Shown piece by piece: positions 24,085 to 64,000 of a stretch of 64,000 nt of DNA (position 1 is the stretch's first letter; every line of letters starts with the position of its first letter). Source of the DNA: a virus; the IMG/VR virus record IMGVR_UViG_3300010885_040738, positions 29,185 to 93,184 of that record; one strand, given 5' to 3'. The position numbers and the translations under genes are program-made. The notes beneath the pieces are model-generated. The model was not told the origin of the DNA, made no database searches, and was given only the letters and a program-made list of their open reading frames with translations.

Positions 24085-25569
24085 ATGATCAAACGCACGA
24101 TTTTGGCGCTGACTGCCATGGCCGTCAGCCTGTTCGCACAGACATCAACCTTCCCGACGGCCGTCGCCACTGACGCTGACCTCAAGGTTCAGGTAAACGG
24201 CACTCAAACCACTCTGACCGCGGCACTTAGCGCCGTAGCCACTAGCACGACAGTCTCCAGTTGCACTCGCATCGGGCCGAATATGCTGGCGACCATCAAC
24301 ACCGAGATCATCGCAATTGCCAACTGTCTCGGGACCACGCTCACTTTCGCGACTACCTCGCCTGGCTGCACGAATGGCAGGGCCTGCGACAATTCGACGG
24401 CCGCCGCACATGCCTCTGGAGCCAACGTCAGCCTGTTTGCCGATGCGTGGCACCACAACGCCTTGCGCGTGCAGGTGGAGGCTATCCAAACCGCTTTGTA
24501 CAGAGGTGCCAGCCCGACGTGGGCCAATATCACGTCGAACGCGAATGTCAACGCAAAGGCTTTCAACTTTTACGACAACACAGGGGAGGTGATCGATTTT
24601 GGCCACTTCGGCATGGACGCGAAGGTTAACGCTATTGACAAAGAACTATATATCAGAGACACTGCCGGAGCGGTAATGTTGACGTTGAGGTCTAGCGGCA
24701 GCGCTTACATTGGTTCAGTGCTAAACTTCGTTGTCGGCAGCAACCTCAGTGAGAAAAACCTGCAGGTTTACGGCACGGTCACGGCGACAGGTACGGTTTC
24801 TTCATCACGCAGTACGGCCGGTAGCGCTATATCCGGGACAACGACCTATGCGGACCCGGCGGCGTACGGCGTGTATGGGTCATCGACAAACGGCGCCGGT
24901 ATTTACGGCGTTTCACTTTATGGAACTGGCGTCAAGGGTTCTGGCTCGACTTATGGCGTGTATGGGTCGTCCACATCAGGCAATGGCGTTTTTGGTATAG
25001 ACACTGCAGGCGGAGCAGGCGTAACTGGAAGCAGCGATGCTGGCTATGGCCTTCGCGGCCTGTCTGATTCCGGGGTAGCGATCATTGCCTCAAGCGTTTC
25101 AGGTGTGGCCCTTTCTGTCACCAGAAACAATAGCGGCCCAGCCGTAACGATTACGACAACTGCAAGCGGCAGCGGCATTTTAGTAAACGCTGCAAATAGC
25201 ACGGTAATTACCGGCACTACAGGTTCATCGACATCCGCAGTTCTGATTGATAGCGGCGGCACTTGCACGATCCGTGCGTCGGCAGGTATTGCCTGCGTTT
25301 CCGACGGGCGGAACAAAAAAGATGTGCGACCAGTCCCATCTTCCCTCGCCAAGGTTCTCCGCTTAAAACCGGTTGAGTACAACATGATAAGCGATGGCCA
25401 GCATGCCGTCGGGCTTATTGCGCAGGAAGTGCAGAAACAGTTTCCCCAAGCTGTGCAGGAGACAGAAGACGGGAAACTGACTCTTTCCTACCAGCAATTG
25501 TTTCCGTACCTGTTGAAGGCAGTGCAGGAGCAGCAGGTTGAGATCAACAGGCTGAAGGCTCGCAAATGA
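24085..25569 (+). CDS. Tail fibre with a C-terminal S74 intramolecular chaperone and an N-terminal Sec-type signal peptide
   Basis: MIKRTILALTAMAVSLFA|Q; GVYG repeats; SDGRNKKDV..LKPVEY..GLIAQEV..FP..V..LSY..L..AVQEQ. Confidence 0.85.
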   Translation: MIKRTILALTAMAVSLFAQTSTFPTAVATDADLKVQVNGTQTTLTAALSAVATSTTVSSCTRIGPNMLATINTEIIAIANCLGTTLTFATTSPGCTNGRACDNSTAAAHASGANVSLFADAWHHNALRVQVEAIQTALYRGASPTWANITSNANVNAKAFNFYDNTGEVIDFGHFGMDAKVNAIDKELYIRDTAGAVMLTLRSSGSAYIGSVLNFVVGSNLSEKNLQVYGTVTATGTVSSSRSTAGSAISGTTTYADPAAYGVYGSSTNGAGIYGVSLYGTGVKGSGSTYGVYGSSTSGNGVFGIDTAGGAGVTGSSDAGYGLRGLSDSGVAIIASSVSGVALSVTRNNSGPAVTITTTASGSGILVNAANSTVITGTTGSSTSAVLIDSGGTCTIRASAGIACVSDGRNKKDVRPVPSSLAKVLRLKPVEYNMISDGQHAVGLIAQEVQKQFPQAVQETEDGKLTLSYQQLFPYLLKAVQEQQVEINRLKARK

Positions 25570-25859
25570 AGGTAGTGGCCCTTGCTTTGCTGGCTATGGT
25601 CTTATATGCGCAGACACCAGCGCCTGCCCCCAAAAACGTCCCGACGGATCTTTCAAACGATTACTTTGCCGCCTACGCTGAGACGTTGAGCATCCGCGAA
25701 ATGCTGTCGAGGTCGGATGCGGAAATGCGCGCCGCCTACGCAGCCATGCAGGCGTACTGCAAAGGCGACGTAATCATGAATCCGGAGAACAAGCGGCGGT
25801 TCGTGTGTAAGCCCGAGCCAGCAGCCGCACCCCCCCCGCCGGAGCCAGCCAGGAAATAA
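25566..25859 (+). CDS. Small signal-peptide protein (possible fibre assembly chaperone)
   Basis: MKVVALALLAMVLYA|Q; coiled coil; two Cys. Confidence 0.65.
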   Translation: MKVVALALLAMVLYAQTPAPAPKNVPTDLSNDYFAAYAETLSIREMLSRSDAEMRAAYAAMQAYCKGDVIMNPENKRRFVCKPEPAAAPPPPEPARK

Positions 25860-25860
25860 A

Positions 25861-26577
25861 ATGCCAGCTTACTTGCCAGGGACAGGGCTACCGGGGCAGA
25901 TCGTCCCCGGGTTTGACCCGTACGACACGCCGGTTATCCCGGGCGAGTACGTGCCTGCAGCGCAGGTTGCGACGATATCAACGCCGCTGGCCTCGCCGCC
26001 GCAGCAGTTCACGAACGTTGAAACGCTGATCAACGGTGGCTACCTCAGTCCACGGGTTCTGCTCTTCATCAACAACAGGCCCATCACGGCGACGGCCGTA
26101 TTGCCTGGACAGTCGCTGCCCGGGACATCGCTCCCAGGGTACGCACCAGTGCCGTACGGACGCCTTCTGACCGAAGGTCTTGACTACACAATTACCGGTG
26201 GAGTTGTGACGATGGCATTTCCGCCGACAGGGGCTGATATGCTGACAGCCGTTGTATTTTCGCCGGGCAAAGCGCTTGGCGGCCCACTGCCGACGCGGTT
26301 TATTGCTCCATGGCAGTTGCCACTACCGCTTTCCGGGCTCTATGACGGAGTCTCGACGCTTTACCGCGTAGTCTTTAGCCGCACTATCTTCGGCGTTCTG
26401 GATGGCGTGAACAAAGTGTTTACGTGGGGCGTGCAGGTCCGCAAGGCTTCAATCTTTGTGAATGGGAAAATGCAGACAATGACACGCAGCGTGTCCATGG
26501 GGCCGACGGCGATGGTCTTCGCAGCCACGAACATCCCGCAGCCAGGCGACATCATTTCCATGCTGGGGTACCTGTGA
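25861..26577 (+). CDS. Virion structural protein with beta-repeat modules
   Basis: LLTEGLDYTITG.. and GVLDGVNKVF..IFVNG..PQPGD modules. Confidence 0.65.
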   Translation: MPAYLPGTGLPGQIVPGFDPYDTPVIPGEYVPAAQVATISTPLASPPQQFTNVETLINGGYLSPRVLLFINNRPITATAVLPGQSLPGTSLPGYAPVPYGRLLTEGLDYTITGGVVTMAFPPTGADMLTAVVFSPGKALGGPLPTRFIAPWQLPLPLSGLYDGVSTLYRVVFSRTIFGVLDGVNKVFTWGVQVRKASIFVNGKMQTMTRSVSMGPTAMVFAATNIPQPGDIISMLGYL

Positions 26578-28472: not shown

Positions 28473-28605
28473 CTTGACTAGGTATGACCCAGTTTCCCTT
28501 CGGCCCGCCGGGCTGATACGCTCCGGGAATTCCGCCGCGTTTGAGCCATCGGTAAACCGTCTTTAATGCCACCCCGGCTCGCGCCGCATATTCTTTCGCA
28601 GTCAT
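28462..28605 (-). CDS. Excisionase/MerR-like HTH protein, antisense to the late operon (not in the ORF track)
   Basis: MTAKEYAARAGVALKTVYRWLKRGGIPGAYQPGGPKGNWVIP; TACAAT -10 box 8 nt upstream. Confidence 0.75.
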   Translation of the reverse strand: MTAKEYAARAGVALKTVYRWLKRGGIPGAYQPGGPKGNWVIPSQVNR

Positions 28606-28731
28606 CAAACGTCATTGTATCCCAAATTGAGACATAAGCGGACAGCGGCATGCGCGGCTCGCCGAAATGGTTCTATGCTGAATTCGAGGGTACAACTTTC
28701 TGTGCCCAAGTTCAGATAAGGAGTTTTCCTC

Positions 28732-29214
28732 ATGGCCGCAGCTACACTCACCACCAACGCGCCTGGTCGGCAATCCTCGCCAATCAATGTTGCCACCTTC
28801 ATCCCTGTCACGGTCACCCTGACTGCAACCGTTTACGCGGCGGCCAGCGGCGGCGCTCCGATCGACCTCACAACCGTCCTCCAGCAGGCAGCGCCTTCTG
28901 GCTGGGATGCGCCCAACTATGTTCAGGCGATCAACCCGGCTGACGTCGTTGGCATTTTCGCCCCAAACCTTTCGACAAACGGATTCCTGCCGATGTCGCT
29001 CGTGATCGGGACCCCGACGTACACGGCGGTTCCCGGGCAGTCCGCCAACGGCGTGTCTGCCACTCCCGGCATTCTTGCCACCTGCCCTGCAACGTTCCGC
29101 CTCTTCGGGACTGGCGCAGGTAACGCCCTCGCTCTCGCTCAGGTGGCTGACGGTGCCGTCACCGACGCCGTCACCTTCTGGCTTGTCGTCATGCGCAACG
29201 GCGCGAACAACTAA
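28732..29214 (+). CDS. Probable abundant structural protein (decoration or tail)
   Basis: TAAGGAG SD; MCP-like codon bias; Ala/Thr-rich. Confidence 0.65.
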   Translation: MAAATLTTNAPGRQSSPINVATFIPVTVTLTATVYAAASGGAPIDLTTVLQQAAPSGWDAPNYVQAINPADVVGIFAPNLSTNGFLPMSLVIGTPTYTAVPGQSANGVSATPGILATCPATFRLFGTGAGNALALAQVADGAVTDAVTFWLVVMRNGANN

Positions 29215-29243
29215 GCGGCAACTGAGGCTCAAGGACAACTACC

Positions 29244-29984: not shown

Positions 29985-29992
29985 GGGAGCCA

Positions 29993-30322
29993 ATGGAACT
30001 GACAGTCGCAGAGCGCCTGCTTCTGTTTCGCGTGATACCGCCCGCCGAAGGAGACTTTCTCTTTCTGCGGGCGGTGCGTGCGTTACGTGAAAGCCTTGCT
30101 CTTTCCCCGGAAGAGATCGCCGAACTTTCCTTTGAGCAGCGTCAAGTTGGCGATGGCGTTCGTTACAGCTGGAACCCGGAAAAAGCCGTCGGCCATGTTC
30201 GCGAGATTGAGATCCCGGCCGTAGTGGCTCCGTACATCTCTCGCAGCATCCTTGCGGCAAAGGGGCTGCAGGAAGAGCACTTGGACTTTTATGGCCGATT
30301 CGTTTTAGAGGAGCAAAAGTGA
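29993..30322 (+). CDS. Hypothetical protein (possible tail chaperone)
   Basis: GGAG SD; acidic, no signal peptide. Confidence 0.6.
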   Translation: MELTVAERLLLFRVIPPAEGDFLFLRAVRALRESLALSPEEIAELSFEQRQVGDGVRYSWNPEKAVGHVREIEIPAVVAPYISRSILAAKGLQEEHLDFYGRFVLEEQK

Positions 30323-32583
30323 GAGTCCTGGTATTGTTAACATTGGCTATTTCGGCGTTCGGCCAAACCGTTACGCAGGTTGACTACAACACGCAGGTCA
30401 AGAACAGGCCGATTGTTTCCGATGCGGGCGCCGCAACTTTTGCAGTTGCTTGTGCTCGGGGCTCTGGTGGCGCAACTGTTTCAGTCACAGTAGCGTGGCT
30501 CAACGTACCAACACAGTCATGCTCGGCCAATCTGGCGTTTAACGGCGGGAGTATCCAGCCTGCCGCTGGCGCGACTGTGACGCTTACTGGGTCTATTACC
30601 GCGCCACCAAACAAGATTCTGGACTACTCAGCAGGCGGAACTGTTAATTTGAGCGGCTCGAAGCTGTCACTTGGGGTACTGCCGCAGTGGCTGGGAGTGA
30701 CCGGAAGCGGAGCCAACGAGACCGTCAACCTGCAAAACGCGCTTGATATCTCTGTTGCATCTGGAAAACCTTTGTATGTTCCCACAGGGACCTATGCGAT
30801 GTGCAACATTTCCACCACTACAACGGGGGCTGTGACTATTACTGGTGCGGGAATGAATCAGTCGAAGTTTATTCGCCACAGTTCCTGTCTGCACAGCACC
30901 GATACCATGCTAACCGCAACCTTTACTGGTTCCAGCGGAACGGCTGAATTGCGAAACTTTAGCATAAGTAATGTATCGAGCAATGGTTCGCTAAATTCTG
31001 ATGACATTGACATCTTTGGAGCTTCGCGGGTTCTGGTAGATGGCTTGTACATTGCCAAAGCGGAAACTGCCGGACTGGGTATTCAGTCTTCCTCAAACGT
31101 AACCATCACAAATTCCACCATATTTGAGAACTACTGGTTCGGCATATCCGTCGCAAACGGTAATGACTGCTGTGGCGGAACAGCCACGCCAGCGTACCTC
31201 TACAACTACAACTTCAGCGGCAATACCTACGTCAATCAGCCTATCGGTTTGGGGCTGAACTTCTTCATGCAGATTATCAATATCTCTGGAGAGACGTTCG
31301 ACCGTAGCAATCTTTCTCTGGTACAGATGCCGCACGCGAAGGCGACGATCTCCAACATCACCATCAAAGGAGTTCCGACACAGGGATGTACCGCCGCATG
31401 TGGTTTACCTGCTACGCAAAACGGCCTATTCCTCGAAGGTGTTGCGGATCTCGATTTATCCGCATTTCACATTAGCGATCTGAGCGGCATCGAGGGTGGT
31501 ATTTTTTGCGTTGCTTCCACACTTACTATCCCAAATCCGGGAACAATGATTCAACTCCCCTGCTCAAATATCCACATAACGGGCGGAACCATAACCGATG
31601 TCACCGCAGGTTACTCAATTTCTATCGCTGGGCAAAGCCCTGGCCCAGGACCCGTAATTGGCCAGAACAACACCATTAAAGGCACCGTGTTGAAGGGCGT
31701 AAACCAGTGCCCTATAATTTCAAGCACGGATGGTTTTGAAATCTCGGATGTTTCCTGCGAGAATGCTGCAAATGGCGGTTTTAGCTTAGGATCTGTGCTT
31801 AACGGCGTTTTCCAAAACAATCGCTGCCGTAATTGCAATACAGCAGGTGGAGGTGGGAACTACCCAGGATTAACTCTCAGCGGGGCCACCTTGCGGCGGG
31901 TGAAAGTCTTCAATAACACATTCGAGAACAACGGAAGTTCCCTCAACTACGGGATTAGGGACACAACCGGAGTAGCAAATAACGGGGCCGAGATTCAATA
32001 CTCTGGTAACATCTGCGCCACTGGATGCCCCACATTGTACAATCCAGCACCAGCCGCTCCATTAGCGGGTACTTGGGCTGTCGGTAGTGTGGTTGAAAAC
32101 AATTATTCCTCCGGTGGTATAACGGGTTGGCGCAATACAGTCGCGGGAACTCCCGGAACATGGCAGACAATGGGCTACCTTGACCCAGATTCCCGCTACA
32201 CCACCATAGCCAGTAATCCTGTTCTGCTAAAAGGGACAATAAGCAATGTTTCCCAAACCGCCGCTTTCGGCCCAGCCCCTATCAATAGCGGCACTCTGTC
32301 TACGGGACTGTACAGAGTTTCGTATCGGGCACGTAGCACAGCGGCATGTGCGACACCGGGGCCAGGTTCACTTCAGGTTAATCTGGCATGGATAGATGAA
32401 TTATTCGGCGTTTCGACTACTGTAATTACAATGGCTTTGGGGTCAGTAGTTACTAACCCAGTGCAAGGAGTGTACATTCTATACGTAGGCAACACCTACG
32501 TTAATTATCAGGCATACTACACTGCCTGTACAACAGGAACCGGGACGTATAGCCTGCAACTTACTTTAGAGAAGTTGCAATGA
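30319..32583 (+). CDS. Tailspike 1 (right-handed beta-helix, pectin-lyase-like) with a signal peptide; Cys-rich
   Basis: MRVLVLLTLAISAFG|Q; LQNALD..LYVPTGTY beta-helix entry; Asn ladders; lower GC. Confidence 0.8.
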   Translation: MRVLVLLTLAISAFGQTVTQVDYNTQVKNRPIVSDAGAATFAVACARGSGGATVSVTVAWLNVPTQSCSANLAFNGGSIQPAAGATVTLTGSITAPPNKILDYSAGGTVNLSGSKLSLGVLPQWLGVTGSGANETVNLQNALDISVASGKPLYVPTGTYAMCNISTTTTGAVTITGAGMNQSKFIRHSSCLHSTDTMLTATFTGSSGTAELRNFSISNVSSNGSLNSDDIDIFGASRVLVDGLYIAKAETAGLGIQSSSNVTITNSTIFENYWFGISVANGNDCCGGTATPAYLYNYNFSGNTYVNQPIGLGLNFFMQIINISGETFDRSNLSLVQMPHAKATISNITIKGVPTQGCTAACGLPATQNGLFLEGVADLDLSAFHISDLSGIEGGIFCVASTLTIPNPGTMIQLPCSNIHITGGTITDVTAGYSISIAGQSPGPGPVIGQNNTIKGTVLKGVNQCPIISSTDGFEISDVSCENAANGGFSLGSVLNGVFQNNRCRNCNTAGGGGNYPGLTLSGATLRRVKVFNNTFENNGSSLNYGIRDTTGVANNGAEIQYSGNICATGCPTLYNPAPAAPLAGTWAVGSVVENNYSSGGITGWRNTVAGTPGTWQTMGYLDPDSRYTTIASNPVLLKGTISNVSQTAAFGPAPINSGTLSTGLYRVSYRARSTAACATPGPGSLQVNLAWIDELFGVSTTVITMALGSVVTNPVQGVYILYVGNTYVNYQAYYTACTTGTGTYSLQLTLEKLQ

Positions 32584-34802
32584 GCATAAGCGGATTCGCC
32601 CCCGGGAAAGAGATTACCGTACCGCGTGGGGCGTGGCCCGTCATCGCGCAGCGCCGCAAAGGTACGCCTTCTCGCGCCAGCGCCATGCAGAACGCCCGAA
32701 TACAGTTCGGCACCGCCAGGAGCCGTGCGGGGACATCGGCGGTCTTCGCCGCGACCGGGAAGGTGAAGGCGATCAGCAATTGGATCACCCCGGGCGACGT
32801 GAACCTTGTGCTCTATCAGGATGGCGACATCCTAAAGTCGTACCGGCAGGATACGGTGACGTCAGCCACCATCCTCACTGGCCTGACGACAACCCGGTCG
32901 CCGGTCTTTGCGCCGCTCAACGTCTGGAATTACATTTGTGGGTACGACACGTCTGGCAACGGCACTATTCAAACCCGCGTGTTCGACGGAACAAACGCGG
33001 ACAAAGCATTTCGCGGGGCCCCGGTCGTGACTACTTGGGACGCGGTGGACTCCGGTGCCGGGCAATGCACCGCAGGGCAGCACTTCATTGGCTTCGTGTA
33101 CCAGAACAGAACAGGGTACTCTGGCATTCCGGTCACCGGCTCATCGTTTACGATCTCGGCCGCCACCAACGCGGCACCGTGCGTCCTGACTGCTGTTGGC
33201 AATAATCTTATTGACGGCCAAACCGTGACGATCGCCAGCGGCACAGGCAACACCGCAATCAACGGCACCCGGATTGTCACCAACCGCGTTGGCTCGAACT
33301 TCGAGCTTACCGACACCGACGGCAACGTCATCAATGGCAATGGAATCTATACCGGTGGCGGGACTGTCACAAACCCGATGCAGGTGACACTGACAGCCGG
33401 CCTTCGCAGCATTTCAGTGACGATCGACTTTCCGGCGCAAACTGACGGCGGTGCTGGTGCTGGCGGCGTTCAATCCACTTTGTTCCTGATCATGACCCGG
33501 GCCGACAACCCAAACATTCAGTACTTCATCCCAACCGACACGCAGAGTGGCAGCGTCGGCACGCAGCCGGTGCCATACAATACGCCAGCCACACTGACCT
33601 TCGTCGCCAGTATTTCGGACGAGGACATGGCGAACTCGCTGGCTGGTGACACTGCGCAGGCAAACTTTAACCTTCTCGCGCAGGACGCCGCCGGTAACGG
33701 CCCCTTCAATCCAAACTTTGTCGTCGCCTACGGGAACCGCATGTGTTACGGCGTCGGGACCACGATGTACGCCAGCGACATCAACAATCCTCAGCAGATC
33801 GCCGCCGACCTCAACGCGGTCCGGATGCAGAACCAGCGCAAGATGGGCGCTGCGTTCCAGTTGCCAGGGAACACGAACTTCTACATCACCGGTGACCAGT
33901 GGACCGGCTACGTCACGGACACCGGCGATTACCCGTCGACGTGGGCTCCTCCCGTCGGCGTGTCAGACAGCCTTGGCGCGCCATTCCAGAACTGCGTTTG
34001 CGCTCAAACCGGCGGCAACTGGGTGTGGATCGTGACGTCTGCCGGACCTTACCTCTACGACGGCGCCTATGGTGAGCAGCCGATCACTTACCTTTACTCC
34101 GGCTACGCTCCCGACGAGTCTCCGATCGGATGGAAGCGTGTCAACTGGAACGCTGCCTACGCCATCCAGATCAAGGACAATGTCAAGGAAAGCAAGCTCT
34201 ACATTGCAGTGCCCCTCGACGGCGCAACCGAGCCAAACTTCATGTTCTGCATTGACTACCTGCAGGGCAAGACTTTTGACACCTGCGACATCAGCTTGGA
34301 CGTCTACAACCCAGCGCAGTTCTCCAGCATCGGCATCGTGAAAGAGATTGCAACCGGAACCGCGAATCTTTGGATCGGCCCGGCTGCAGCTGGCAACGTT
34401 CGCCGCGTGGACGTGGCGACTCACAACGATGAAGGCTTGGCGATTGATTCGTACTGGGAGTCCGGGCTGTGCCGCGGCGCTGAGTTCCGGACATCAATGA
34501 TTCGCGTCGGCGCGGTTGACATCTGGGCCCGCGGGAATGCGCCTTTAGATGTCAACGGGAACCCGACGTTTACCGTGACACTGTATAGTCCAGATCATCA
34601 GGTGAGCGTCCCGTTCACCTTGCTCAGCACCCAGGGCGTGCCGGCTGCTTTAGTGCCTCAACCGGGGATTGGATACCAGAGCAAATCTGACATCTCAAAA
34701 ATCGAGAACTACTCTATAAGAGTTGGAACGAACGTTATCAACGGATGGTGGGAGCTCAGCATGCTTCGGCCGTACGCTAAGGCTGACCTTTACAACAGGT
34801 AA
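32580..34802 (+). CDS. Tail tubular/stabilisation (nozzle-like) protein with an E1-FCCH-like insert
   Basis: Beta-propeller-like sequence; ISAATNAAPCVLT..GQTVTI..INGTRIVT; C-terminal IDSYWESG..WELS. Confidence 0.65.
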   Translation: MSISGFAPGKEITVPRGAWPVIAQRRKGTPSRASAMQNARIQFGTARSRAGTSAVFAATGKVKAISNWITPGDVNLVLYQDGDILKSYRQDTVTSATILTGLTTTRSPVFAPLNVWNYICGYDTSGNGTIQTRVFDGTNADKAFRGAPVVTTWDAVDSGAGQCTAGQHFIGFVYQNRTGYSGIPVTGSSFTISAATNAAPCVLTAVGNNLIDGQTVTIASGTGNTAINGTRIVTNRVGSNFELTDTDGNVINGNGIYTGGGTVTNPMQVTLTAGLRSISVTIDFPAQTDGGAGAGGVQSTLFLIMTRADNPNIQYFIPTDTQSGSVGTQPVPYNTPATLTFVASISDEDMANSLAGDTAQANFNLLAQDAAGNGPFNPNFVVAYGNRMCYGVGTTMYASDINNPQQIAADLNAVRMQNQRKMGAAFQLPGNTNFYITGDQWTGYVTDTGDYPSTWAPPVGVSDSLGAPFQNCVCAQTGGNWVWIVTSAGPYLYDGAYGEQPITYLYSGYAPDESPIGWKRVNWNAAYAIQIKDNVKESKLYIAVPLDGATEPNFMFCIDYLQGKTFDTCDISLDVYNPAQFSSIGIVKEIATGTANLWIGPAAAGNVRRVDVATHNDEGLAIDSYWESGLCRGAEFRTSMIRVGAVDIWARGNAPLDVNGNPTFTVTLYSPDHQVSVPFTLLSTQGVPAALVPQPGIGYQSKSDISKIENYSIRVGTNVINGWWELSMLRPYAKADLYNR

Positions 34803-34806
34803 CATT

Positions 34807-36771
34807 ATGACAAAATATCTCGCTCTCGCATTTTTGGCAGTAGCAGCTTTTGGGCAACAGTCGAAGTTTGACTACCCGACGCAGATCAAGAATGGACCTC
34901 TCGTTTCCGATGCGGGCGCCGCGACTTTTGCGGCCGCTTGTGCTCGGGGTGCTTCCGGTGCGACTGTCTCAATTACTCAGGCATGGCTCAACGTTCCGAC
35001 ACAGTCCTGCGCGACCAATCTGGCGTTCAATGGCGGTAGTATCCAGCCTGCTAGTGGCGCAACGGTTACTTTAACTGGTACCATTACCGCTGCCGCGAGT
35101 AAGATATTCGACTATTCCGCTAGTGGAACGGTAAGTTTGGCGGGGGCTAAAATCGTTTCGGTTTTGCCTCAGTGGTGGGGAGCAAAGGGTGATTACAACT
35201 TTACCTCCGGTTCTGGTACAGATAATTGCACCGCTCTGAATGCCGCCTCTACGGCTGGTGGCCTTGTGCGAGTCACGAGCGGTTACTATTACAGTTCGTG
35301 CAAATGGACCATTTTAGCTAACACTCCGGTCACGATACAGGGGACTGGCGGCATAAATGATCCGAACAGCCCCCCAGTGTCGACAGCAGGCAAGTCGGTA
35401 ATCATATTTGCGGCTGGGGTTGCCGGGGTAGATTTTGTACAGGGCAATCGGTACTCCGCAATCGACGGAATGTACCTTTACTCAAAATCTACGGTTTTGG
35501 GTGCTACACAAAGCGGAATCACGGCACAGGATTCGTCAATCCGCATCACGAATAATGTAGTCTACGGGTTTGGCGAGGACGGCATTCACCTTGCCGACAC
35601 GTTTGAGACAGACCAGATGTTTGTGGTCAATAACTACGTGTGGAAAAACTTCAAACACGGGATAAGCTGTGCAAACAACATCTGCAATATCACCGCCGTC
35701 CAGAATAACCATGCGGTAATCAACGGCCAGTATGGATTCTACCTGACCGGAGGCTCGGGCAACGTGTACTCAGGGAATTACGCTTCCAATAATACAGTCG
35801 GTGATTACTACATCGGCAGTATCGGTAACACGCTCATCAATAACGTTTGTGAGGGTGGGCCGCCCGGTGGGTCCATGATTTTGGCTGGAGTTTATTTGAC
35901 GGTTTTTATGCAAGCTGTCGGAGATTGTCTAATTGAAAATGTGCCCTCAACAAACGGGTTGGTGAATAAAATCTACTATTCTGGGTACCAAGAGACTAAG
36001 GTATCCATCATACCCGCACCTACCGATGTAAACGTACAGTGCAACTCAACTGGTGGCCCGATCACATACGCCTGTACCGCGTACCCTGCGGTCGCAAGCT
36101 ACACAACCGGAATGGAGCTAAGATGGATCGCTAATGTATCAGCCACACCCGGCGCGGTTACCCTTAACGTCAGTGGTCTGGGCGCAAAGTCTGTTAAATT
36201 GGCGAACGGCACAACAGATCCGATTGCAGGAAGTATTGTCATCGGGCAAAGACGACGTTTAGTGTATGACGGCACAGTATTTCGGATATTGCAGCCTGAA
36301 TACTCTCTTGGCGTAGGGTCCAATGATACAGTAGTGACCTTCAGGGATGAAACAAATAACGTTGCAATCTGGGATTACAGCGCCCTGACCGGAAAATTTA
36401 CGTTGAAAACTGGCTTGATCTTTGATGTGCCTCTTAAGATTTCGCAAATTGGGTCTAATCCAGCCTTAGAGCTTTTTAAAAACGACAACACTGGGGCAAG
36501 TGCCATAAGTTCAATTTTGAATTTTAGCGCCCTCACAGGGGCTGGCCCCACTGAGGGTATTTATGCGTCCATCCGATCTGCAATTTTTGACAACACTCCC
36601 GGAGCACAACGCGGCCTCCTGCATTTATACACGGCACAGGGAAGTGGTACGCCGACGATAGGAGTAACGATCACCGGGTATGGGGCTGTGATTATCCCTG
36701 CACTTGCCGGGGGCGGTGCAACCGGAGCATGTATTGCGAATAACGGAGAAATTTACAGGGCGCCATGTTAA
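34807..36771 (+). CDS. Tailspike 2 (beta-helix) with a signal peptide; N-terminal ~100 aa paralogous to tailspike 1
   Basis: MTKYLALAFLAVAAFG|Q; PQWWGAKGD..TDNCTALNAA; TLNVSGLGAK domain; lower GC. Confidence 0.8.
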   Translation: MTKYLALAFLAVAAFGQQSKFDYPTQIKNGPLVSDAGAATFAAACARGASGATVSITQAWLNVPTQSCATNLAFNGGSIQPASGATVTLTGTITAAASKIFDYSASGTVSLAGAKIVSVLPQWWGAKGDYNFTSGSGTDNCTALNAASTAGGLVRVTSGYYYSSCKWTILANTPVTIQGTGGINDPNSPPVSTAGKSVIIFAAGVAGVDFVQGNRYSAIDGMYLYSKSTVLGATQSGITAQDSSIRITNNVVYGFGEDGIHLADTFETDQMFVVNNYVWKNFKHGISCANNICNITAVQNNHAVINGQYGFYLTGGSGNVYSGNYASNNTVGDYYIGSIGNTLINNVCEGGPPGGSMILAGVYLTVFMQAVGDCLIENVPSTNGLVNKIYYSGYQETKVSIIPAPTDVNVQCNSTGGPITYACTAYPAVASYTTGMELRWIANVSATPGAVTLNVSGLGAKSVKLANGTTDPIAGSIVIGQRRRLVYDGTVFRILQPEYSLGVGSNDTVVTFRDETNNVAIWDYSALTGKFTLKTGLIFDVPLKISQIGSNPALELFKNDNTGASAISSILNFSALTGAGPTEGIYASIRSAIFDNTPGAQRGLLHLYTAQGSGTPTIGVTITGYGAVIIPALAGGGATGACIANNGEIYRAPC

Positions 36772-36833
36772 CCACAGGAGATAATCCATGAGCCGTTTTA
36801 CAGACACCCAACTAACTACGCTTCAGGAGCGGC

Positions 36834-37039
36834 TGCAATGAGCATAAGCGGATTTGCCCCCGGGAAAGAGATAAGGCCGCGCAGGCAGAAAATAGCGGGG
36901 GATCAATGAGCATCCCGTGACACTGTATAGTCCAGATCATCAGGTGAGCGTCCCGTTTACTCTTTTGAACGTTGTCGACGGATGGTGGGAGCTGAGCATG
37001 CTGAGGCCGTACGCTCGGGCAGACCTTTACAACCGGTAG
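36834..37039 (+). pseudogene. Collapsed remnant of a second copy of the 32580-34802 tail gene
   Basis: 36834-36872 matches 32576-32614 (38/39); 36915-36957 matches 34573-34615 (43/43); 36967-37039 resembles 34730-34802 with mostly synonymous changes. Confidence 0.85.
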
Positions 37040-37755: not shown

Positions 37756-37940
37756 TTAGCGATACCAGATCCTTTACAGACCGTCCAATGTCCGCCGACC
37801 TCTACCAGATGATCTACCGATATCGCAGGGGCACCTTTGTACTTCCCGCTGGTCCGCCTCATGAATGACGGCCGGTAGTGCCGCACCTGCTGCCCGCACT
37901 TCCAACAGGGGCGATTGTTCCTTGTCGCGTGATTCCCCAT
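37752..37940 (-). CDS. Small basic Zn-binding protein
   Basis: CWKCG...H...CKGSG. Confidence 0.5.
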   Translation of the reverse strand: MGNHATRNNRPCWKCGQQVRHYRPSFMRRTSGKYKGAPAISVDHLVEVGGHWTVCKGSGIAK

Positions 37941-37941
37941 C

Positions 37942-45927: not shown

Positions 45928-45935
45928 TATAAATC

Positions 45936-60900: not shown

Positions 60901-63314
60901 AGCCGGAGATCCCGGAAGGCGTTCAGCCGGCCGTGGCCAGAAAGATCCGCCTCCGGATTGACAAGATCCTTCAGAGCAAAGCTGGGGGCACCGGCTACGT
61001 CGGGGCTTCGCGCAAAAACCTTCGAGGCACCCGAAGCTTTCTCAACCAGCACACTCTGGAGTCAATGTCCGAGGGCATGGAGCACGGAGGTGAACCGGTC
61101 TCCTACAACCCGCTGCTGATGTTTGCGGCCCACTACAACGACGCCATGAAGTACGTGACGGCGTTGCGGATGATCGAAAAGTTTAAGGCAGACGGCACAG
61201 CACGTTTCCTGAAATCCGGGAAGCCGATGTTTGATGGTTACGCCAAACTGGATGACAATGCGGCTCGGGTGGCGCTGAAGACGCCGCAAGGGTTTGTTGC
61301 GACCGGCGAATGGGTATTCCAGCGCAACGCGGCAAACCTTCTGAACAACATGCTTGGGCGCGATTACCTGCGTGAGGTCTACGAGGACGCCCCGATGTCG
61401 CGGTTTACCGGCCGGGCCGGACGTTCACTGCTCAACATCAAAAACGCCTACACTGCGATCGAGCTCGGGTGGTCACCGTATCACGCGGTATTTGAGGGAA
61501 TCGAAGCGGTCGGCTCAATGATGGGCATCGGACTGCGGGAAAGCTACAACACCGGCATCGTCCCGCTGGTGTCGTTCGCGCTGGGGATTCCGACTGATGT
61601 TGGGGTGACGAGCGCAAAGACAGCTTTCAAGAACATCGCGAAGGGCGTCGGAACATTAGCAACGTCCCCTTGGGCGTTCGTGTCCGCTGCGCAGGAAGGG
61701 GCGCAGGCTCGCCGCGGCTGGACCGAAGAGGTGATTGGCGCCGTCGACAATGTAAAGCCGAAGCTGTTTGACAAGCTTCTTCCGGAAGTCGCCGTTGATT
61801 ATCTGATGGCCCGGCGCGCTGAGCGTGCGATGAAGAAGACCGTCGCCGGGCGTCAGTTCGTCAAAAACAACCCAGCTGCAGCGCAGGCAATTCCGTACTA
61901 CTTCATCGGCGGCGGGAAACTTGGCCTGCCGGAGGAATTCGAGACACACGGGGCAGAAGAGCTTCAGCGGCACTGGAACGACATGCTGGACAAGCAGCGG
62001 ACCGGCAATCAGCGGGTGAGTTCGGGTCTCCGTGCCGGGCTCAAGGCGCTGCCGGCGTCCAGCCAGTACATGCTGAAGCCTTTGTTCCAGAACTACATTC
62101 CAAATCTGAAACTGGCGTTTTTCCTCCGCGAGTTTGGGCTTGCTCAGGTAGAGCGCGCCGGCGAGCTGGAGCGCGGCGAGATTACTTTGGATCAGATTGC
62201 CCGGCTGGTCGTCGGGTCAGTGGAAAACAGATTTGGCGAAATGAACTTTGATCGCCTGTTCTGGGATCGCACCATGAAGACCTTCCTGCAGATCCTGTTC
62301 CGCTCTGTTACCTGGAAGATCGGCGAGCTGTCGGAACTGGGGCGGGCGGTTTACGGTCAAGGGAAAGGTTTGCAACGTGATATTGGCAAGGGCCGCATCC
62401 CGCGGCTTGACCCAAGCATGGGCTGGCTTGTTGGCGTTGCCCTTGCGGCCGCGCTGGTCGGCACCGTGTTGACCATGGCGACGACAGGGCACCCGCCGAA
62501 AGATATGCAGGGGTTGCTTTACCCTGTCATTGATGACAGCACGGGCCTGACCGTCGCACTTGCGTCTTATATCAGGAACTACTTCCACATGAAGCATGAC
62601 CCGGTTGGCTATGTGAAGTCTTCGTTTCAGGGCGAGGTCGGCAAGGTCATGGACGTCATCAATAATCAGGATTTCCGGCATCAGAAGATCTGGCAGGACG
62701 ATGACCCGATGTACCAGCAGGCTATGGACGCAATGCTGCACCTGCTTCCGGAGCCAATCACTTCTGGCGGGATCAAGAAGATCCGGCAGGGCGACACCAA
62801 AGAGGGCATAGCCAGCATGCTCGCGTTCTCAAAGGCACCCGCCTACATCGACAAGACCCCGGCTGAACTGCTGGCGCAGGACATTGCCGGACAGCATCGC
62901 AGTGTTGGCGGGCGGTCCAAGGCCGCAGCAGACAAGGCGGAAGCCGCCAGCCGCATTCGCCGCGCATACAAAGCGGGCAACACAAAGGGCGCAGAGGACC
63001 TGATCGCCAAACAGGTCGCCGCCGGTGTTATTTCCAAGTCCGACGGCAACACCTACCGCAATCAGGCAGGGAGAAGCCCTCTCGACGCCATGGTGAAGCA
63101 GTTCTCCGTATCCGAAGCTCTTCGCGTCTACGACAAGGCCGAGGCTGACGAAAAGAAAACGCTGGGGCCAATTGTCAAAGCAAAGGTCTGGCGCGCCAAG
63201 AACTATCACCCAGCAGAATTCGGCGATCCCGGGAGCAACACATGGAACCTTGCGACGAAACACTTTGGGGTCAAACCGCCACCGGCCGCACGTCAGGGGC
63301 AGGTGACTCAGTAA
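45936..63314 (+). CDS. Giant 5792-aa polyvalent virion protein, DarB-like (N6-adenine MTase plus SNF2 helicase), with extra kinase-like, TGT/DpdA-like and wHTH domains and an intein
   Basis: N-terminal GYDVxGARKxGLSxDD x2; MTase NAHYTS, EPSMGVGNF, GVELD, IGNVPF; helicase HEVGAGK/T, DEAH, ATGTP, QREGRIKRQGN; large helical C-terminus. Confidence 0.9.
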   Translation: MADQQGYDVAGARKAGLSDDDILGYLNQDKSYDVDGARKSGLSNDDMIGYLASRPAPAAKVAMAGASPATPATKPVPITGPVPPGLIGPVATPEQAFEAQKNYVPGIPKMSALPNDLDELPRSLATIRARAEGPVDRRVPPGPTGPPTTPEQVVATQKQLSPSIPKMSALPTSTMDDVDEFQRRMNEPTGNRVLDAIRTGDYRKLVPPAPPAKPATITPESTDQDIENAASESFFHHSDQIGRGAARALGAFVSPESLDSMAMIAMTGRGLAALANTPKLARALRNAPEVLKALDVAAGAAVPAAVAGYGGAQLLTQPAPSNLEEATETAINALILGAGTIGAIEAGKSVLSRYAAETSGNVRMPGGAEVPAKSVGGIPEVDPRQAAANAAALESQGQNLAAMYWNGRNLNAPTEFSTTAGRMFLQPAQIIKKAGGKVYRYESVLDADGNLVVGGTPETVRQWLEHRKAKVNTYAAVPGAGGAPLIADVGTVQTGASNLKAAPGTFQTADTALESDAPTPPVTQQPLTPVQQAAGNLMQDTLGFNPMAPGTESAAPQLIPDIKAFQKARAAWLKQTSAARDEWELESDKRAVAFMEANPGVTWEDAKAATADHAPAPQPGQEPRPEDFKTLAPPPKVEPVKEVKPDKTKIVTGRTNNPPTAATATTPESPETIAAQVTQLGEGTRRVVMFPRGQGQPAQFPDNVGITSDGLGNTYAYNKDLITPAAVQTAARNNTLPEILGHAQMGMGAPDKSMLQGDVVVVVVRDANGVEVQSTATDEAHLEQTTAASQALMPEGGSVGIETPEQAVGGRTEAPAALQAPGRVGGGAEAGGAPVQPPEQEVASEYDGVPLSVLSAFPGMISPGLDLIPLSNFSQTEQAALRSAGLVETGTSKSGEYEGVDSGKLWPLRSAASDAGAGKTSTHMPAPPTQFLPPRQVGGETPTGDDALIGGRTDIQAPAPFKFPLLAPFSQTFKNPIVSVGSIRDIYPESTFSQSDYVASATPTLDDDDLETGWLSIPAINGGVLIDPQSGKALSFIGDGTPEATGRAKSEAQTWAIENRIKQPIKSATASIQAPGKVGGVPDAVVARDAKRLADATQAIEQAAASGQKITGQQIQRQFQLGYGAAESLLKSFGLDYLGNPIAEQQPPAQELTPAGAKILDTIQSPEPDGLTARIAEWTSRDGSKKGFSVAFQDPESGEFLPDIRTAETLEQARQIARKALGIPEPDIPEHMENSWQALQDAMRSVVVGGERQNHPDPVAIDVLRALSKTPGGLRAFDSLVASRTEQQPTFLGAGVGHAVLDLGNGEVLKLGKLQKQERSRYALQPEVSGEIGSVAYAIYPKLDTSGISDADVDLVDAQLRSEGLEWSDAGKDNLGRDANGDLKILDGDVTRKPSVPAPRPVGGEASITAAGEFAKKEMAEQERLESLNTGKWAGMSGAQIADAAKELGISTDAFAEATTRRQQIAERGRLIEAIQAKEAAKSQTILPAPRPVGGEAPAPEEKAPTISKDRAQAIIARVSAVMDEAVKAGVIGQENVSDAIAMVLRDIPDDATDAEMDQVIALLRSEALAPIDRVEMKHPLTYFTGSSGPGVEKRANERGDIGLLITPLIDYLGKVQHYPVIAVDNGAFSKATPFSADKFLALLDKVAADPEVARKVQFVVAPDTPMDAKATLEKFPMWAAEIQKRGLPVALAGQNGLEDMIDQIPWDDFDTLFMGGDDEWKLGDFKDEAQKKKWLDLLWEAGQRGKKIHVGRVNSFKRSDFSNYQMEAISVDGTYLAHGPDKNLPKLESWLNRINERPYSMGPRFPNPRPDEAEDSDWSGDPLEFAPYRGSDAMWESRNGKFLIFDQGDNSPLGKFSLVDTETDGTTYHKSYAAAVKAAREEAPPIAPGQAPAPEPANGEVVSWDEAETLLATADAFGGTITRISDTLIHAEANGRRLAFEKLPDGKVRVGPIRAEAPAAAPAPTAPTPAQPNYAPEGITKAEKYVGRLAYQAKKDYARAYLDHLTLDEAAPARGKLSEALEKEVKNEINKHLGKRLAKAPAAKAPAAPAVRELADFLKPGAPPIDWWKTDGIKADWETVRKAYAARAQRPEGAGQTFLDYTRDWEDNRAEAGFDRRTAEAATQVEAPTTQVAALTDLDRSLLEYLGKTKTSEDLLYFEGAGEGEQGLKDMNKALASLANRGLVAREYSQTGGDTKFWRTPEGTKALREKKPVTPQIQTGVAGATPLGVKPEQMEATQADILLRTATRKIDELIEQAETALRNQGENNARAVLDQLSAFLPAARERVAKLASSADGGYVDRLESAIARAEAVIGRYAKKPAARAAQPSAERFDELSKELAEIERSPQYRQDTEAGRNARESANSLSVDVAFHRPAAIARAQAEIDAEKAAKSSKAWKYELKAEGKWSQPLGSPLATEAEAKAAGQSHLDRWMMAEDVRTAEVNEKPTHTWNEAERRQEPIQKEAANAEGNTTSGAATKSDAGSKTGPRRPGEADTASLAEVSAEDSSEAQGEGAPERDGERGGRGARPDGQPNAGGGVRSGSGGRSGSGTVDQSGDTDGGRRGPGDLERQTEGGDFRISDADHIGEGSPRQKLNGNLDAIRIVKAIEKDPRPATPEEQEKLAKYVGWGSLANVFDWRKSEFEGAREELKKLLTPDEYRAAEKSTYNAHYTSPLVISSMWDAMKRLGVKPGFSVIEPSMGVGNFFGLQPDGLMPSRRTGVELDKITGAIAKLLYPDSNVQVTGFERIQLPHNFFDVAIGNVPFGNVGVVDPSYRKTPAATSAIHNYFFVKSLDLTRPGGIVAFITSRYTMDSLGKEVRDMIADRANLIGMFRLPNTAFKGNAGTSVVTDVIFLQKRAPGEARTGPSFIETKKVATADGTETDLNEYYAARPEMMLGELSTQGTQYAADSQTLIGKLTPELLQNAVNQLPENIFSEWHADTPSFDGEFYQLGDEVKDGGYAIKDGVIVQREGNIYRPTVVGKTQGERIRGMIPVRAALRKVFATQLEAESSEKAILDARKELNKAYDKFVKEHGYLSSVANSRALGDDPDYSPLAGALEDWDRDTKTAAKTDIFTKRTIERPSFPDKADTAAEAMAMVLNEKGRLDWNRMQELTGKSLDELRAELTGQVFKNPDGQIWETEDEYLSGNVRKKLRIAEAAAGIDPFYQRNVDALLAIQPADLLPEQIKIVPGAHWIPATTIQEFLREVLGLDSAKVHHAAAVATWSINVPNSYELDRTQNKSFGTENFTGVKLFDMSLNGKAPRVYRPGPGDTRIFDPKATAVALAAQDALNDRFREWIWHNPSRARELAEIYNREINNIRNVEHNGAHLTLPGSNPAIVLRPHQKNAIWRALKTGNTLLAHEVGAGKAQPLDAKILTPSGWKLMGDMTVGDHVIAGDGSVTSVEAVFPQGEKDIFRVEFSDGSATECCDEHLWLTQTYQERNQAQRAEKAEKDWNCGKAEVRSLAEIRNTLIAPHLNAKNHSIPIVGAVHFNAQPVPLHPYLLGTLIGDGCFRGHGSVSISSADKELLDAISLLLPAECELRHQSAYDYVIAWNGQARYAVGDGMVPSHPVVNAVKSLGLWGKYSYEKHIPECYLFNSQEVRASLLQGLMDTDGTVTRRGTSVEYCTTSPKLAAQVTDLVRSLGGIVALRSKQPGYTHQGVRKIGRVAFTLTLSLPPSVLPFRLSRKAILVTPKTKYHPARYITNVAPVGRKQAQCIRVAHRSHLYVTDDYIVTHNTWEMVGIAMESRRLGLSKKPMLVVPNHMAEQFTNEFLQLYPAARILTIGKEDFAADKRKRATARISGGNWDAVIIRHSSFEKIPVSDATFKAFIDRQVEELKAALEAQEAETASAQTTGRRGRGGKKKVDKSVKEIQKAIERLAVKLEKRLNRDKKDDAVTFEELGVDLLLVDEAHAFKALPIVTRRTRVAGIPNRESNRATDMFMKTQYVGDLNGGRRGVVFATGTPVTNTMAELYNMQRYLQLKTLREAGIEHFDAWANAFGMIRTGVELDVSGKGFRENTRFARFVNIPELMAIYKRVADIKTAAMLNLPTPELFTGNVEPISVKETPELTAYVDYLIDRTDVIRGGGVDPKDDNMLKVVSEGKKAALDMRLVDPEAQDRPESKVNTAVGNIYKIWEETSDDKLTQLVFCDLSVPLSAKSRKAKKQKPTDEEQQAEDELDAVPEAAGEAAGFSVYDDMKAKLVARGIPAKEIAFIHDYDSDDAKQDLFDSVKAGRVRVLFGSTEKMGVGTNVQRRMIALHHMDSPWRPADITQREGRIKRQGNKNPKIHIFQYLTEGSFDAFMWQTLETKAMFIAPILSGDSSIREMEDIGMVLPSAAEFKAMASGNPIIKEKIGTDSELARLDAQRNAFRRQQAGVREQIEKLPRDIAWKQRDIARRQSQYDFVEAHQAEGYTIEGVAFTGADARKNAAAALHAELSGTLRLGGSPSKVGTYKGLDIVAWPGSGSYPRLTVNMPGSAYDSQFGEIGISFPVSTNEDNPLGTLQSIEAGVRIYITSPEKQSLELEELLRKQKDLEDQGEKPWPYENRYNTLVKRKIEIDAELDQSEAERVGGAEDGEDTVKRVERRGVSYQERKKLLLARERGENVEYPPLQARHEVGSAPMPSAPAIRTTKNSGPMSAYTPGDGELAPRLNADRTPVLPTWYRQEIDGKNFYSDGVFVIQGDTPEGKIVNNDGLKSYVKPQDGQVEMGPLAYSIDKPRDDGSVLRRVWLSPRLAVDSIPFDYVKKRFPDATFWATDNPTKPVTVRSGDDVVAVIMPLRETAPPANIEPALSAKPRTSSVTLGMGPGQEMYEATAKYIKEETLPWVKRILSEKATMGRALVEILDPRYNTPRPIMDTVSKMAGGRSMAEYLVAKKLDNWSQKFSKMSRQDSINFVDRVKAGLPQPDDDLQDAADFMRRMDDQVWSSIPEDRRPAYLENHFRVMWKVIPDSNKAIAAREARAQELVDGMTDPTRQAYAQDYLAYITEQTPDEPEIPEGVQPAVARKIRLRIDKILQSKAGGTGYVGASRKNLRGTRSFLNQHTLESMSEGMEHGGEPVSYNPLLMFAAHYNDAMKYVTALRMIEKFKADGTARFLKSGKPMFDGYAKLDDNAARVALKTPQGFVATGEWVFQRNAANLLNNMLGRDYLREVYEDAPMSRFTGRAGRSLLNIKNAYTAIELGWSPYHAVFEGIEAVGSMMGIGLRESYNTGIVPLVSFALGIPTDVGVTSAKTAFKNIAKGVGTLATSPWAFVSAAQEGAQARRGWTEEVIGAVDNVKPKLFDKLLPEVAVDYLMARRAERAMKKTVAGRQFVKNNPAAAQAIPYYFIGGGKLGLPEEFETHGAEELQRHWNDMLDKQRTGNQRVSSGLRAGLKALPASSQYMLKPLFQNYIPNLKLAFFLREFGLAQVERAGELERGEITLDQIARLVVGSVENRFGEMNFDRLFWDRTMKTFLQILFRSVTWKIGELSELGRAVYGQGKGLQRDIGKGRIPRLDPSMGWLVGVALAAALVGTVLTMATTGHPPKDMQGLLYPVIDDSTGLTVALASYIRNYFHMKHDPVGYVKSSFQGEVGKVMDVINNQDFRHQKIWQDDDPMYQQAMDAMLHLLPEPITSGGIKKIRQGDTKEGIASMLAFSKAPAYIDKTPAELLAQDIAGQHRSVGGRSKAAADKAEAASRIRRAYKAGNTKGAEDLIAKQVAAGVISKSDGNTYRNQAGRSPLDAMVKQFSVSEALRVYDKAEADEKKTLGPIVKAKVWRAKNYHPAEFGDPGSNTWNLATKHFGVKPPPAARQGQVTQ
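53335..53640 (+). CDS. Nested +1-frame gene (TnpV-like small protein usually found next to DarB-like MTase-helicases)
   Basis: AGAGG SD before the ATG at 53335; GKRILRHWQKYRPKTVQRLKAKGLL..AAEE...GFGADQADEVAREPWI; the host frame here is a low-complexity G/R/S linker. Confidence 0.7.
   Translation: MQKETPQAGPRLSPMQVARQAPEGLGKRILRHWQKYRPKTVQRLKAKGLLNETVNEAAEEHAQTVSQMLGAGFGADQADEVAREPWISPETRTADDEDLET
56034..57140 (+). mobile_element. 369-aa class-3 intein with a LAGLIDADG endonuclease, inserted in the helicase Walker A motif (GAGK^T)
   Basis: Starts with Ala (AQPLDAKILTP) and ends THN/T; WCT signature (DEHLW, AQCIRV, YVTDD); LLGTLIGDG and LLQGLMDTDG. Confidence 0.92.
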
Positions 63315-63334
63315 ACGGTTATAATGGAGCGAAC

Positions 63335-63736
63335 ATGAAACGAGCATTCATCGTCTTACTCGCAATGGCTACCGCCCTCGCGGCCCAGTCGCCGACGATT
63401 GTAAACATGGGAGGGCGTCCGGTCCTGCCGACGGGCACATCGCCGTTTGGTGGCCCATTCGAGTTCAGGTGGCAGGCACTGCCGACCAGCCTGACCGATG
63501 TTGCGACATCAACGGCACACATCACGGGGTATTGCTTTTACAACAGCAATGCCGCCGCTCGTACGCTGACCATTCAGACCAAGGACGGATCGCCGTTACC
63601 GTTGCCGTTGTCGGGAAGTTTGGCGACCGCTACGACTGTGTGTTTCACGTTTGACCAAGGGCTGCTGGTTAATGGCGGTTTCTCGGTTCAGGCATCTGGC
63701 GCGGGGGTCTACTACTATGCGAAATTCACTAATTAA
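63335..63736 (+). CDS. Signal-peptide-bearing beta-sandwich protein (virion or secreted)
   Basis: [17 protein letters not shown]|Q; TATAAT and GGAG upstream; two Cys. Confidence 0.7.
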
Positions 63737-64000
63737 GCTGGCCCTCGGGCTGACTCTGTGTGGCGTTGTATTCGGGCAGGGCGGAGTGTCTCAATATCCA
63801 TTGGGCGCTTCCGGCCCCGCTGGCGGAGACCTCAGCGGAACATACCCGAACCCGACTGTAGGGAAAGTGAATGGGATTGCAGTCACCGGAACCCCGGCAA
63901 CCGGGTACGTCCCGACAGCGACAAGCGCGTCGGCTGCGACATGGCAGGCCACGGCCAGTTCACTCCCTCCGTCCGGGCCTGCCGGGGGTGATCTCAGCGG
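63717..64000 (+). CDS. Signal-peptide-bearing fibre-like protein with GPAGGDLSG(TYPNP) repeats; partial
   Basis: Manual translation [20 protein letters not shown]|[28 protein letters not shown]...SGPAGGDLS. Confidence 0.7.

Follow-up and report, generated by a model that had tools for sequence, protein, structure and literature searches.

Six late genes of an uncultured, short-tailed soil phage, among them those of a tail fibre and two tailspike-like proteins, encode products that begin with signal-peptide-like leaders. The genes lie in a stretch of 64,000 nt (the window), the last 64 kb (positions 29,185 to 93,184) of the single 93,184-bp contig IMGVR_UViG_3300010885_040738 from IMG/VR. Each leader ends in A or G directly before Gln, the mature parts of the five complete proteins are rich in paired Cys, and both traits recur in relatives. 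Taken together, export, cleavage before Gln and oxidative folding of these proteins are highly probable. Docking onto particles at lysis is, overall, the most likely last step, although we hold this view tentatively. The kind of protein is known; we did not find the export route described.

Signal-peptide-like leaders on six late genes

The late operon runs on the + strand from the terminase (11785) through the portal (15409), a scaffold-like protein (18595) and the capsid protein (20138) to several tail genes. These are followed by three large ejection-type proteins (39524, 42050 and 44473) and a 5792-residue protein (45936-63314). The leader-bearing genes are:

24085..25569, + strand: tail fibre, 494 residues; ATG start; leader of 18 residues ending LFA, then Q; an N-terminal beta-barrel domain of ~115 residues plus helix, then a shaft, then a C-terminal S74 intramolecular chaperone
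25566..25859, + strand: small leader-bearing protein, 97 residues; ATG start overlaps the fibre stop (ATGA); leader ending LYA, then Q
30319..32583, + strand: tailspike-like beta-helix protein 1 (spike 1), 754 residues; GTG start; leader ending AFG, then Q
34807..36771, + strand: tailspike-like beta-helix protein 2 (spike 2), 654 residues; ATG start 4 nt past the upstream stop; leader ending AFG, then Q
63335..63736, + strand: small leader-bearing protein, 133 residues; GGAG 6 nt upstream; leader ending LAA, then Q; 2 Cys (67/103)
63717..64000, + strand: fibre-like leader-bearing protein, incomplete at the contig end; leader ending VFG before Q

All six leaders have K or R in the first 2–4 residues, followed by 10–15 uncharged hydrophobic residues, then [LAV]-[FYA]-[AG], and then Q. 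The residue at −1 is A or G in 6/6; at −3 it is A or V in three and L in three, so that the small-residue rule is half obeyed. We scanned every ATG, GTG and TTG start with an open reading frame (ORF) of at least 60 residues, in six frames across the whole contig, with a heuristic rule (hydrophobic core followed by [AG]Q). Among 2457 starts, only these six display the pattern, an observation well above chance. The original prediction had placed leaders ending in A or G before Gln on just these late genes, and the scan confirms it.

The annotated starts are credible because they are coupled to upstream stops (25566, 30319 and 34807) or lie behind GAGGAG or GGAG (30319 and 63335); that of spike 1 overlaps the upstream stop and has GAGGAG just 5′. 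Beyond the leaders, the first further in-frame starts are at residues 67, 87 and 111 and fall within domains that are conserved in relatives. Later starts would truncate these domains, and the true starts therefore cannot lie downstream of the leaders, a possibility that had been raised together with the original prediction. Miscalled starts or chance hydrophobic N-termini could in principle create the whole pattern, and the home-made heuristic behind the leader calls leaves room for this. Such an artefact is nonetheless very improbable, given 6/6 leaders here against none elsewhere among the 2457 starts, the truncation that later starts would cause, and the retention of leaders in more than 120 clusters of homologues (see below).

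Two other kinds of export signal were rejected for the six window genes. No lipobox Cys is present at +1, which is Q in 6/6, and this speaks against lipoproteins; the product of 63717 contains an internal LTLC, but its hydrophobic core continues to VFG before Q. The RR motif of twin-arginine (Tat) signals is absent from all six.

No leader was found on the terminase, portal, scaffold, major capsid, three ejection-type or 5792-residue proteins. The earlier claim that the core genes are leaderless thus stands for portal, capsid and ejection proteins, and also for the two tail genes listed next. The names 'adaptor' and 'nozzle' that it gave to these two did not fare as well: they find no support in Pfam or PHROG and are based on gene position and on a gene order shared with related contigs.

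23027..24037, + strand: leaderless adaptor-like tail gene, directly 5′ of the fibre; 50% identity in the related contigs L001 and L003; named by position only
32580..34802, + strand: leaderless tail gene of 740 residues (the 'nozzle'), between the two spikes; 50–55% identity in L001 and L003

By their sequences, the fibre and the spikes are receptor-binding-type proteins of phages and not bacterial imports. The fibre matches Peptidase_S74 (PF13884) over residues 406-457 (E 7.6e-13, 49 bits against a Pfam cut-off of 22) and contains the S74 motif SDxxxK as SDGRNK at residues 406-411. Pfam assigns Beta_helix to spike 1 (E 1e-10) and Beta_helix/NosD to spike 2; Beta_helix exceeds its cut-off in both, consistent with right-handed parallel beta-helix bodies. 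The spike family combines a conserved N-terminus with exchanged distal parts. Profile scans of 185,579 bacterial species genomes revealed no relatives of the spike N-domain, metagenome and viral scans with N-domain alignments yielded no confirmed relative, and the nearest Atlas clusters that bear a taxon are viral.

The three smaller or incomplete products are less readily classified. The 25566 protein consists of a Pro/Ala linker, helices with one Cys pair (65/81) and a Pro-rich tail, and a protein built alike is found in L001 (597-884). The 63335 protein has no family match. The 63717 product shares a motif downstream of its leader with the leader-bearing fibre of another contig, L006 (2927-4084). 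The contig end interrupts gene 63717 inside a repeated GPAGGDLSG motif, which may have stopped the assembly; joining the contig end to the contig start leaves the gene incomplete. A longer assembly may exist, as protein-cluster tables give 96,738 bp as the length of the longest contig for window proteins.

Leaders and paired cysteines across the protein families

With the first 134 residues of spike 1 as query, phmmer retrieved 219 clusters from 1.84 billion representatives, and the leader counts for this N-domain family cover the 153 that are readable. A leader is present in 124 of the 153 representatives and is directly followed by Gln in 91 of these 124 (~73%, as compared to 6/6 in the window); several of the leaderless calls are visibly truncated gene calls. 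The leader occurs whether the conserved stretch begins at residue ~20 or behind an extra domain of 120–200 residues, and it has been kept over more than 120 homologue clusters although the leader sequences diverge. Conservation in homologues, which had been suggested as a check on the leaders, is thus borne out.

A pair of recently related spikes illustrates the same behaviour. Spike 2 and the spike of L006, an unrelated contig with a different capsid gene, are 40% identical at the DNA level in the leader, ~74% over the next 180 nt, and 97–100% from there to 50 nt past the stop, with near-identity starting at ~nt 241 of the gene. Their leaders are unrelated in sequence, yet both are signal-shaped. 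This pattern indicates that the distal part was swapped recently while each phage retained its own leader. Retention of leaders across the family and the unrelated yet signal-shaped leaders of this pair argue that the leaders are under selection.

The identity past the stop (window 36771-36830, L006:7409-7470) includes a common stretch that opens with ATGAGCCGTTTTACAGACACCC; this may mark a recombination boundary or the beginning of a small gene that was transferred along with the spike.

Cys accounts for 1.95% of residues in the five complete mature leader-bearing proteins versus 0.41% in 17 leaderless late proteins. The counts in the five are all even (6, 2, 18, 12 and 2), and the Cys form short-range pairs. 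The six Cys of the mature fibre pair as 60/81, 95/101 and 394/404, the 18 of spike 1 make nine short-range pairs, and the 12 of spike 2 make six. The Cys-rich, paired character that had been noted for the fibre and spikes is real, and the motifs singled out at that time correspond to 95/101 in the fibre and to 284/285, 357/361, 503/506 and 566/570 in spike 1. Evenness extends to relatives: among 96 leader-bearing representatives of at least 400 residues, the mature part contains an even count of Cys in 82 and an odd count in 14 (binomial 7e-13), whereas leaderless fibre relatives divide into 16 even and 15 odd (Fisher 3e-4 against the leader-bearing set).

Leader and Cys pairs are tightly linked in the fibre N-domain, a domain that is common in IMG/VR and recognizable by the motifs FP..VATD.DL ... 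RGFDGT ... DAWHHN. Among 45 non-identical family members, all 15 with a leader contain 2 or 4 Cys in this domain, and all 30 without one contain 0–1. The Cys of the 15 occupy paired columns and follow one of two arrangements, either of which comes with a small loop insertion. The domain begins at residue 5-35 of the leaderless relatives, the position where the mature window fibre would begin. A tree computed after masking Cys shows the leader and the Cys pairs changing in concert; the best tree has only three such changes, and well-supported branches have one. The spike 1 family behaves similarly: six Cys pairs are conserved in four leader-bearing members, and the leaderless homologue P0004 (35% identity, 92% coverage) retains 1 of these 12 Cys positions.

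Leader conservation, Gln at +1, even Cys counts, and Cys pairs confined to leader-bearing homologues lend strong support to the proposal, made in the original prediction, that these proteins are exported and form disulfides in the periplasm. A rival explanation keeps most of the protein in the cytoplasm: the signal would be weak or blocked late, the leader would remain uncut, the proteins would be assembled there and their Cys would oxidise after release, with the hydrophobic helix serving in docking or in membrane contact at infection. This explanation would preserve textbook cytoplasmic assembly; the helix is modelled with moderate confidence (predicted local distance difference test score, pLDDT, ~70), and disulfides can form post-lysis in an oxidising medium. 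However, it offers no known reason why most relatives retain a Gln directly behind a small residue if the chain is not cut there, nor why leaders diverge fully while keeping a signal shape. Leaderless relatives thrive without such a helix, and mere oxidation after release would not be expected to couple Cys pairs so strictly to the leader. We therefore consider a weak signal unlikely.

Three leaderless-looking fibre homologues (L013:9896-10000, L019:9932-10000 and L059:6802-6870) have a conserved in-frame extension 5′ of MTPTFGK. It reads M..PTRR.LL.APALALGS and resembles a Tat signal; if the extension is translated, some fibre relatives would be exported already folded.

Possible fates of the putatively exported proteins in the light of known systems

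The window proteins resemble canonical podovirus tailspikes and S74 fibres in their right-handed beta-helix bodies, in the C-terminal S74 domain with SDxxxK, and in the conserved N-terminus joined to exchangeable distal parts. They differ in cleavable-type leaders, Gln at +1 and 6–18 paired Cys. To our knowledge, the tailspikes and fibres P22 gp9, CBA120 TSP1-4, K1F endosialidase and T5 pb1 have no signal peptide and few or no structural disulfides and are assembled in the cytoplasm. Phage proteins that do use Sec include the coat proteins of filamentous phages, signal-peptide and signal-arrest-release (SAR) endolysins, and spanins; none that we know of serves a tailed phage as receptor-binding protein. 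Filamentous phages are put together at the membrane, and we know of no tailed phage that is. In the literature on signal peptides of tail fibres and tailspikes, we found no description of the trait.

Two cultured phages have comparable genes. In Tunturiibacter phage Tunturi_2 (PP885685), a podovirus of Acidobacteriota, six consecutive late genes, gp12-gp17, lie behind the 'tail protein' gp11 (L063 9802-22744). Clear K/R-hydrophobic leaders ending AQ are present in at least gp12, gp13, gp16 and gp17; the leader of gp14 is N-terminally extended and lacks Q, and gp15 lacks the K/R n-region. The six proteins, which include a 'tail fiber' and a 'pectin lyase', contain 20, 10, 21, 2, 2 and 34 Cys. 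They have no BLAST similarity to the window proteins at 1e-3, the published description of Tunturi_2 nowhere mentions signal peptides, and Tunturi_3, a phage of the same host strain, has no leaders. In Cellulophaga phage phi18:3 (NC_021794, Pachyviridae), three consecutive podovirus proteins of fibre size, gp085-gp087, have leaders ending SQ, AQ and AQ. Their annotation as virion or tail proteins in the database record derives from tandem mass spectrometry (MS/MS) of particles. Phi18:3 differs from the window phage in its Bacteroidota host and in its low Cys counts (0, 1 and 3).

The window phage probably infects a soil diderm whose secreted proteins have Gln at +1. By analogy, this host may plausibly be of the Acidobacteriota type, because the G+C content is 58% and Tunturi_2 uses the same leader style. 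Gln follows ~71% of Bacteroidetes leaders, a Q-rule described as exclusive to that group (PMC5837995, PMC10653852); the Tunturi_2 leaders suggest a wider use of Gln at +1, outside Bacteroidetes and by phages of Acidobacteriota. Porphyromonas gingivalis phages encode secreted proteins of unknown function that follow the Q-rule (Matrishin et al. 2023, PMC10367356); these proteins share Gln at +1 with the window leaders but are not tail parts.

We propose the following sequence of events. The fibre, the two spikes and the three smaller proteins would be synthesised late and would leave the cytoplasm via the Sec translocon of the host. Signal peptidase I would cut directly before Gln, which can cyclise to pyroglutamate. 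Folding and trimerisation would take place in the periplasm with many structural disulfides, and the S74 chaperone of the fibre would cleave itself at Ser406. Heads and tail cores, leaderless and Cys-poor, would be built in the cytoplasm as usual. Once holin opens the inner membrane, particles would meet the periplasmic pool, and the fibre would dock via its N-terminal barrel domain.

Docking is favoured because the fibre N-domain is retained, disulfide-reinforced and similar in fold to a chain of a podophage portal-tail complex, because spike 2 occupies the slot of a fibre in L001, and because leader-bearing proteins of phi18:3 were detected in virions by MS/MS. These three results lend indirect support to the second step of the original prediction, attachment to particles at or after lysis. 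The fibre N-domain is modelled as a barrel plus helix, with pLDDT above 88 for residues 41-120 and 81-85 over residues 21-40 and 121-130. The model superimposes on chain 1 of the podophage GP4 portal-tail complex (8jov) with Z 10.9 and a root-mean-square deviation of 2.6 Å (104/116 residues aligned, 19% identity); Foldseek gives the same match a probability of 1.00 and E 0.014. The next fold matches, at Z 9.0-8.0, are barrel domains in further tail and capsid proteins of phages. When the fibre domain was used as a profile against the PDB, it gave weak matches only, to tail-tip proteins.

Several points weigh against the proposed route. Which of the GP4 proteins chain 1 of 8jov represents is not confirmed. 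The spike N-terminal stretch (spike 1 residues 30-130) best matches beta-helices of tailspikes and lyases, with Z of at most 5.5 and no anchor fold listed. The detection of gp085-gp087 in phi18:3 particles could reflect co-purification, and it shows no cleavage. All leader calls come from our heuristic and not from a trained signal-peptide predictor, and the link between leader and Cys in the fibre N-domain represents 1–3 independent changes, so that the nominal Fisher value of 3e-12 overstates independence. L006 has a leader-bearing fibre and spike directly after the capsid gene. The closest relatives, L001 and L003, are syntenic with the window, yet both lack the fibre block (24085-25859), spike 1 (30319-32583) and spike 2; because all these genes are missing there, the leader-bearing genes appear, from this comparison, to behave like insertable cassettes within late operons. 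Finally, the particle may not need the exported proteins, since the window also contains leaderless fibre candidates:

25861-26577 and 26424/26574-28472, + strand: two overlapping leaderless ORFs with immunoglobulin (Ig)-like repeats; 0 and 2 Cys

These two ORFs are candidate conventional fibres or whiskers that would be assembled in the cytoplasm. ORFs 25861-26577 and 26424-28472 lie in different frames and share ~150 nt; they may represent two genes, the second with the later start 26574, or may be joined by a programmed frameshift that fuses an N-terminal part to the Ig-repeat body.

Much of this evidence would also suit proteins that never join the particle and act as free periplasmic or released enzymes or binders, an explanation that we rank next after docking and regard as possible, if doubtful. 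Such enzymes would cut the capsule, exopolysaccharide (EPS) or O-antigen of the infected cell from inside, which would keep progeny off debris, prevent superinfection and make the matrix looser, while the virion adsorbs via the Ig-repeat proteins. The spikes pass from the leader directly into beta-helix coils: the conserved N-terminal ~115 residues of spike 1 are modelled as beta-solenoid coils (pLDDT 90), and Foldseek against the PDB finds nothing significant for the spike N-terminus. The particle-binding domain of canonical tailspikes is not recognisable in them, and the homologue P0005 consists of a leader and a beta-helix only. The want of such a domain gives weight to the secretion or display that the original prediction had offered as its alternative. 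The cassette-like insertions, missing in L001 and L003 and placed elsewhere in L006, and the presence of leaderless fibre candidates point the same way. Precedents are the ~5% of prophage carbohydrate-active enzymes that have signal peptides, in a study that excluded tail fibres (PMC13507307), and the Q-rule proteins of Porphyromonas phages (PMC10367356). On the other hand, the fibre keeps and disulfide-reinforces a domain that is N-terminal in leaderless relatives and whose fold matches a portal-tail chain. Receptor-binding proteins that sit on the particle are typified by a constant N-terminus and exchanged distal parts, spike 2 lies in the fibre slot of L001, and leader-bearing proteins are found in phi18:3 virions.

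Gene placement in other contigs is equally ambivalent. L001 encodes a leaderless fibre at the place of spike 2, L007 and L008 have a leader-bearing spike behind adaptor-like genes, and L047 has two in tandem. Judged by sequence, cassette movement of this kind fits both receptor-binding modules and late accessory genes.

The exported proteins might instead be displayed on the surface of the infected cell, where they would mask receptors, aggregate the cell with uninfected hosts or bring about lysogenic conversion. The model for this is the MAT fibres of Bdellovibrio bacteriovorus, which possess a signal peptide, a beta-rich, conserved domain spanning ~130 residues and a variable trimeric fibre, often with an S74 end (Caulton et al. 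2024, PMC10769870). MAT fibres and the window fibre, compared by domain order, are built alike, and MAT fibres sit on the predator surface (PMC10769870). They are, however, encoded by chromosomal genes of a predatory bacterium, whereas the window fibre is encoded in a phage late structural operon, and the window shows no sign of lysogeny. Nothing was found that would carry the proteins across the outer membrane: a type IX sorting domain or anchor is absent as judged by Pfam only, and there is no lipobox. The spike N-domain family was not found in bacterial genomes. Surface display is thus improbable, and we return to docking at lysis as the preferred last step.

Neighbouring genes and implications

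The contig lacks a terminal repeat and tRNA genes over its whole 93,184 bp. Relatives of the capsid protein occur in five IMG/VR contigs (63–77% identity), and GenBank phages hold no detectable relative of the capsid protein, of spike 1 or of the family member P0013; the fibre matches GenBank phages through its S74 domain only.

Three further genes of the operon deserve mention. Gene 17681-18289, between portal and scaffold, matches the 2′-5′ RNA ligase/2H phosphoesterase superfamily (E 1.2e-7); its match to the anti-CBASS protein Acb1 is weaker (E 2.8e-4). The gene possibly serves counter-defence, from within the structural operon, by degrading cyclic nucleotides. Between the terminase and portal genes, 14816-15337 and its counterpart L001:4458-4850 encode a conserved protein of 130–173 residues whose hydrophobic N-terminus leads into a long, charged helical stretch, a build like that of an inner-membrane spanin. 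Neither an endolysin nor a holin was recognised in the window. The single ORF 45936-63314 behind the three ejection-type proteins encodes 5792 residues with 9 Cys only, and a related contig of the L007/L008 type likewise terminates in a large ORF behind comparable genes.

In the textbook view, the particles of tailed phages are cytoplasmic assemblies. If the export signals described here work, either a docking step follows export, or the 'tailspike' function is routinely split off as a particle-free exported enzyme. Expression of such proteins would need an oxidising compartment, and virome filters that drop signal-peptide proteins as 'host' or 'auxiliary' would miss receptor-binding proteins and depolymerases of this type. 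The question also bears on host-range evolution and can be tested in cultured systems, Tunturi_2 and Cellulophaga phi18:3. Our tentative proposal is that some tailed phages of soil and marine diderms complete their virions outside the cytoplasm: otherwise complete, non-infectious particles may gain Sec-exported, disulfide-locked receptor-binding proteins when holin opens the inner membrane. If docking of this kind takes place, it would be an assembly step missing from the present picture of tailed-phage morphogenesis.

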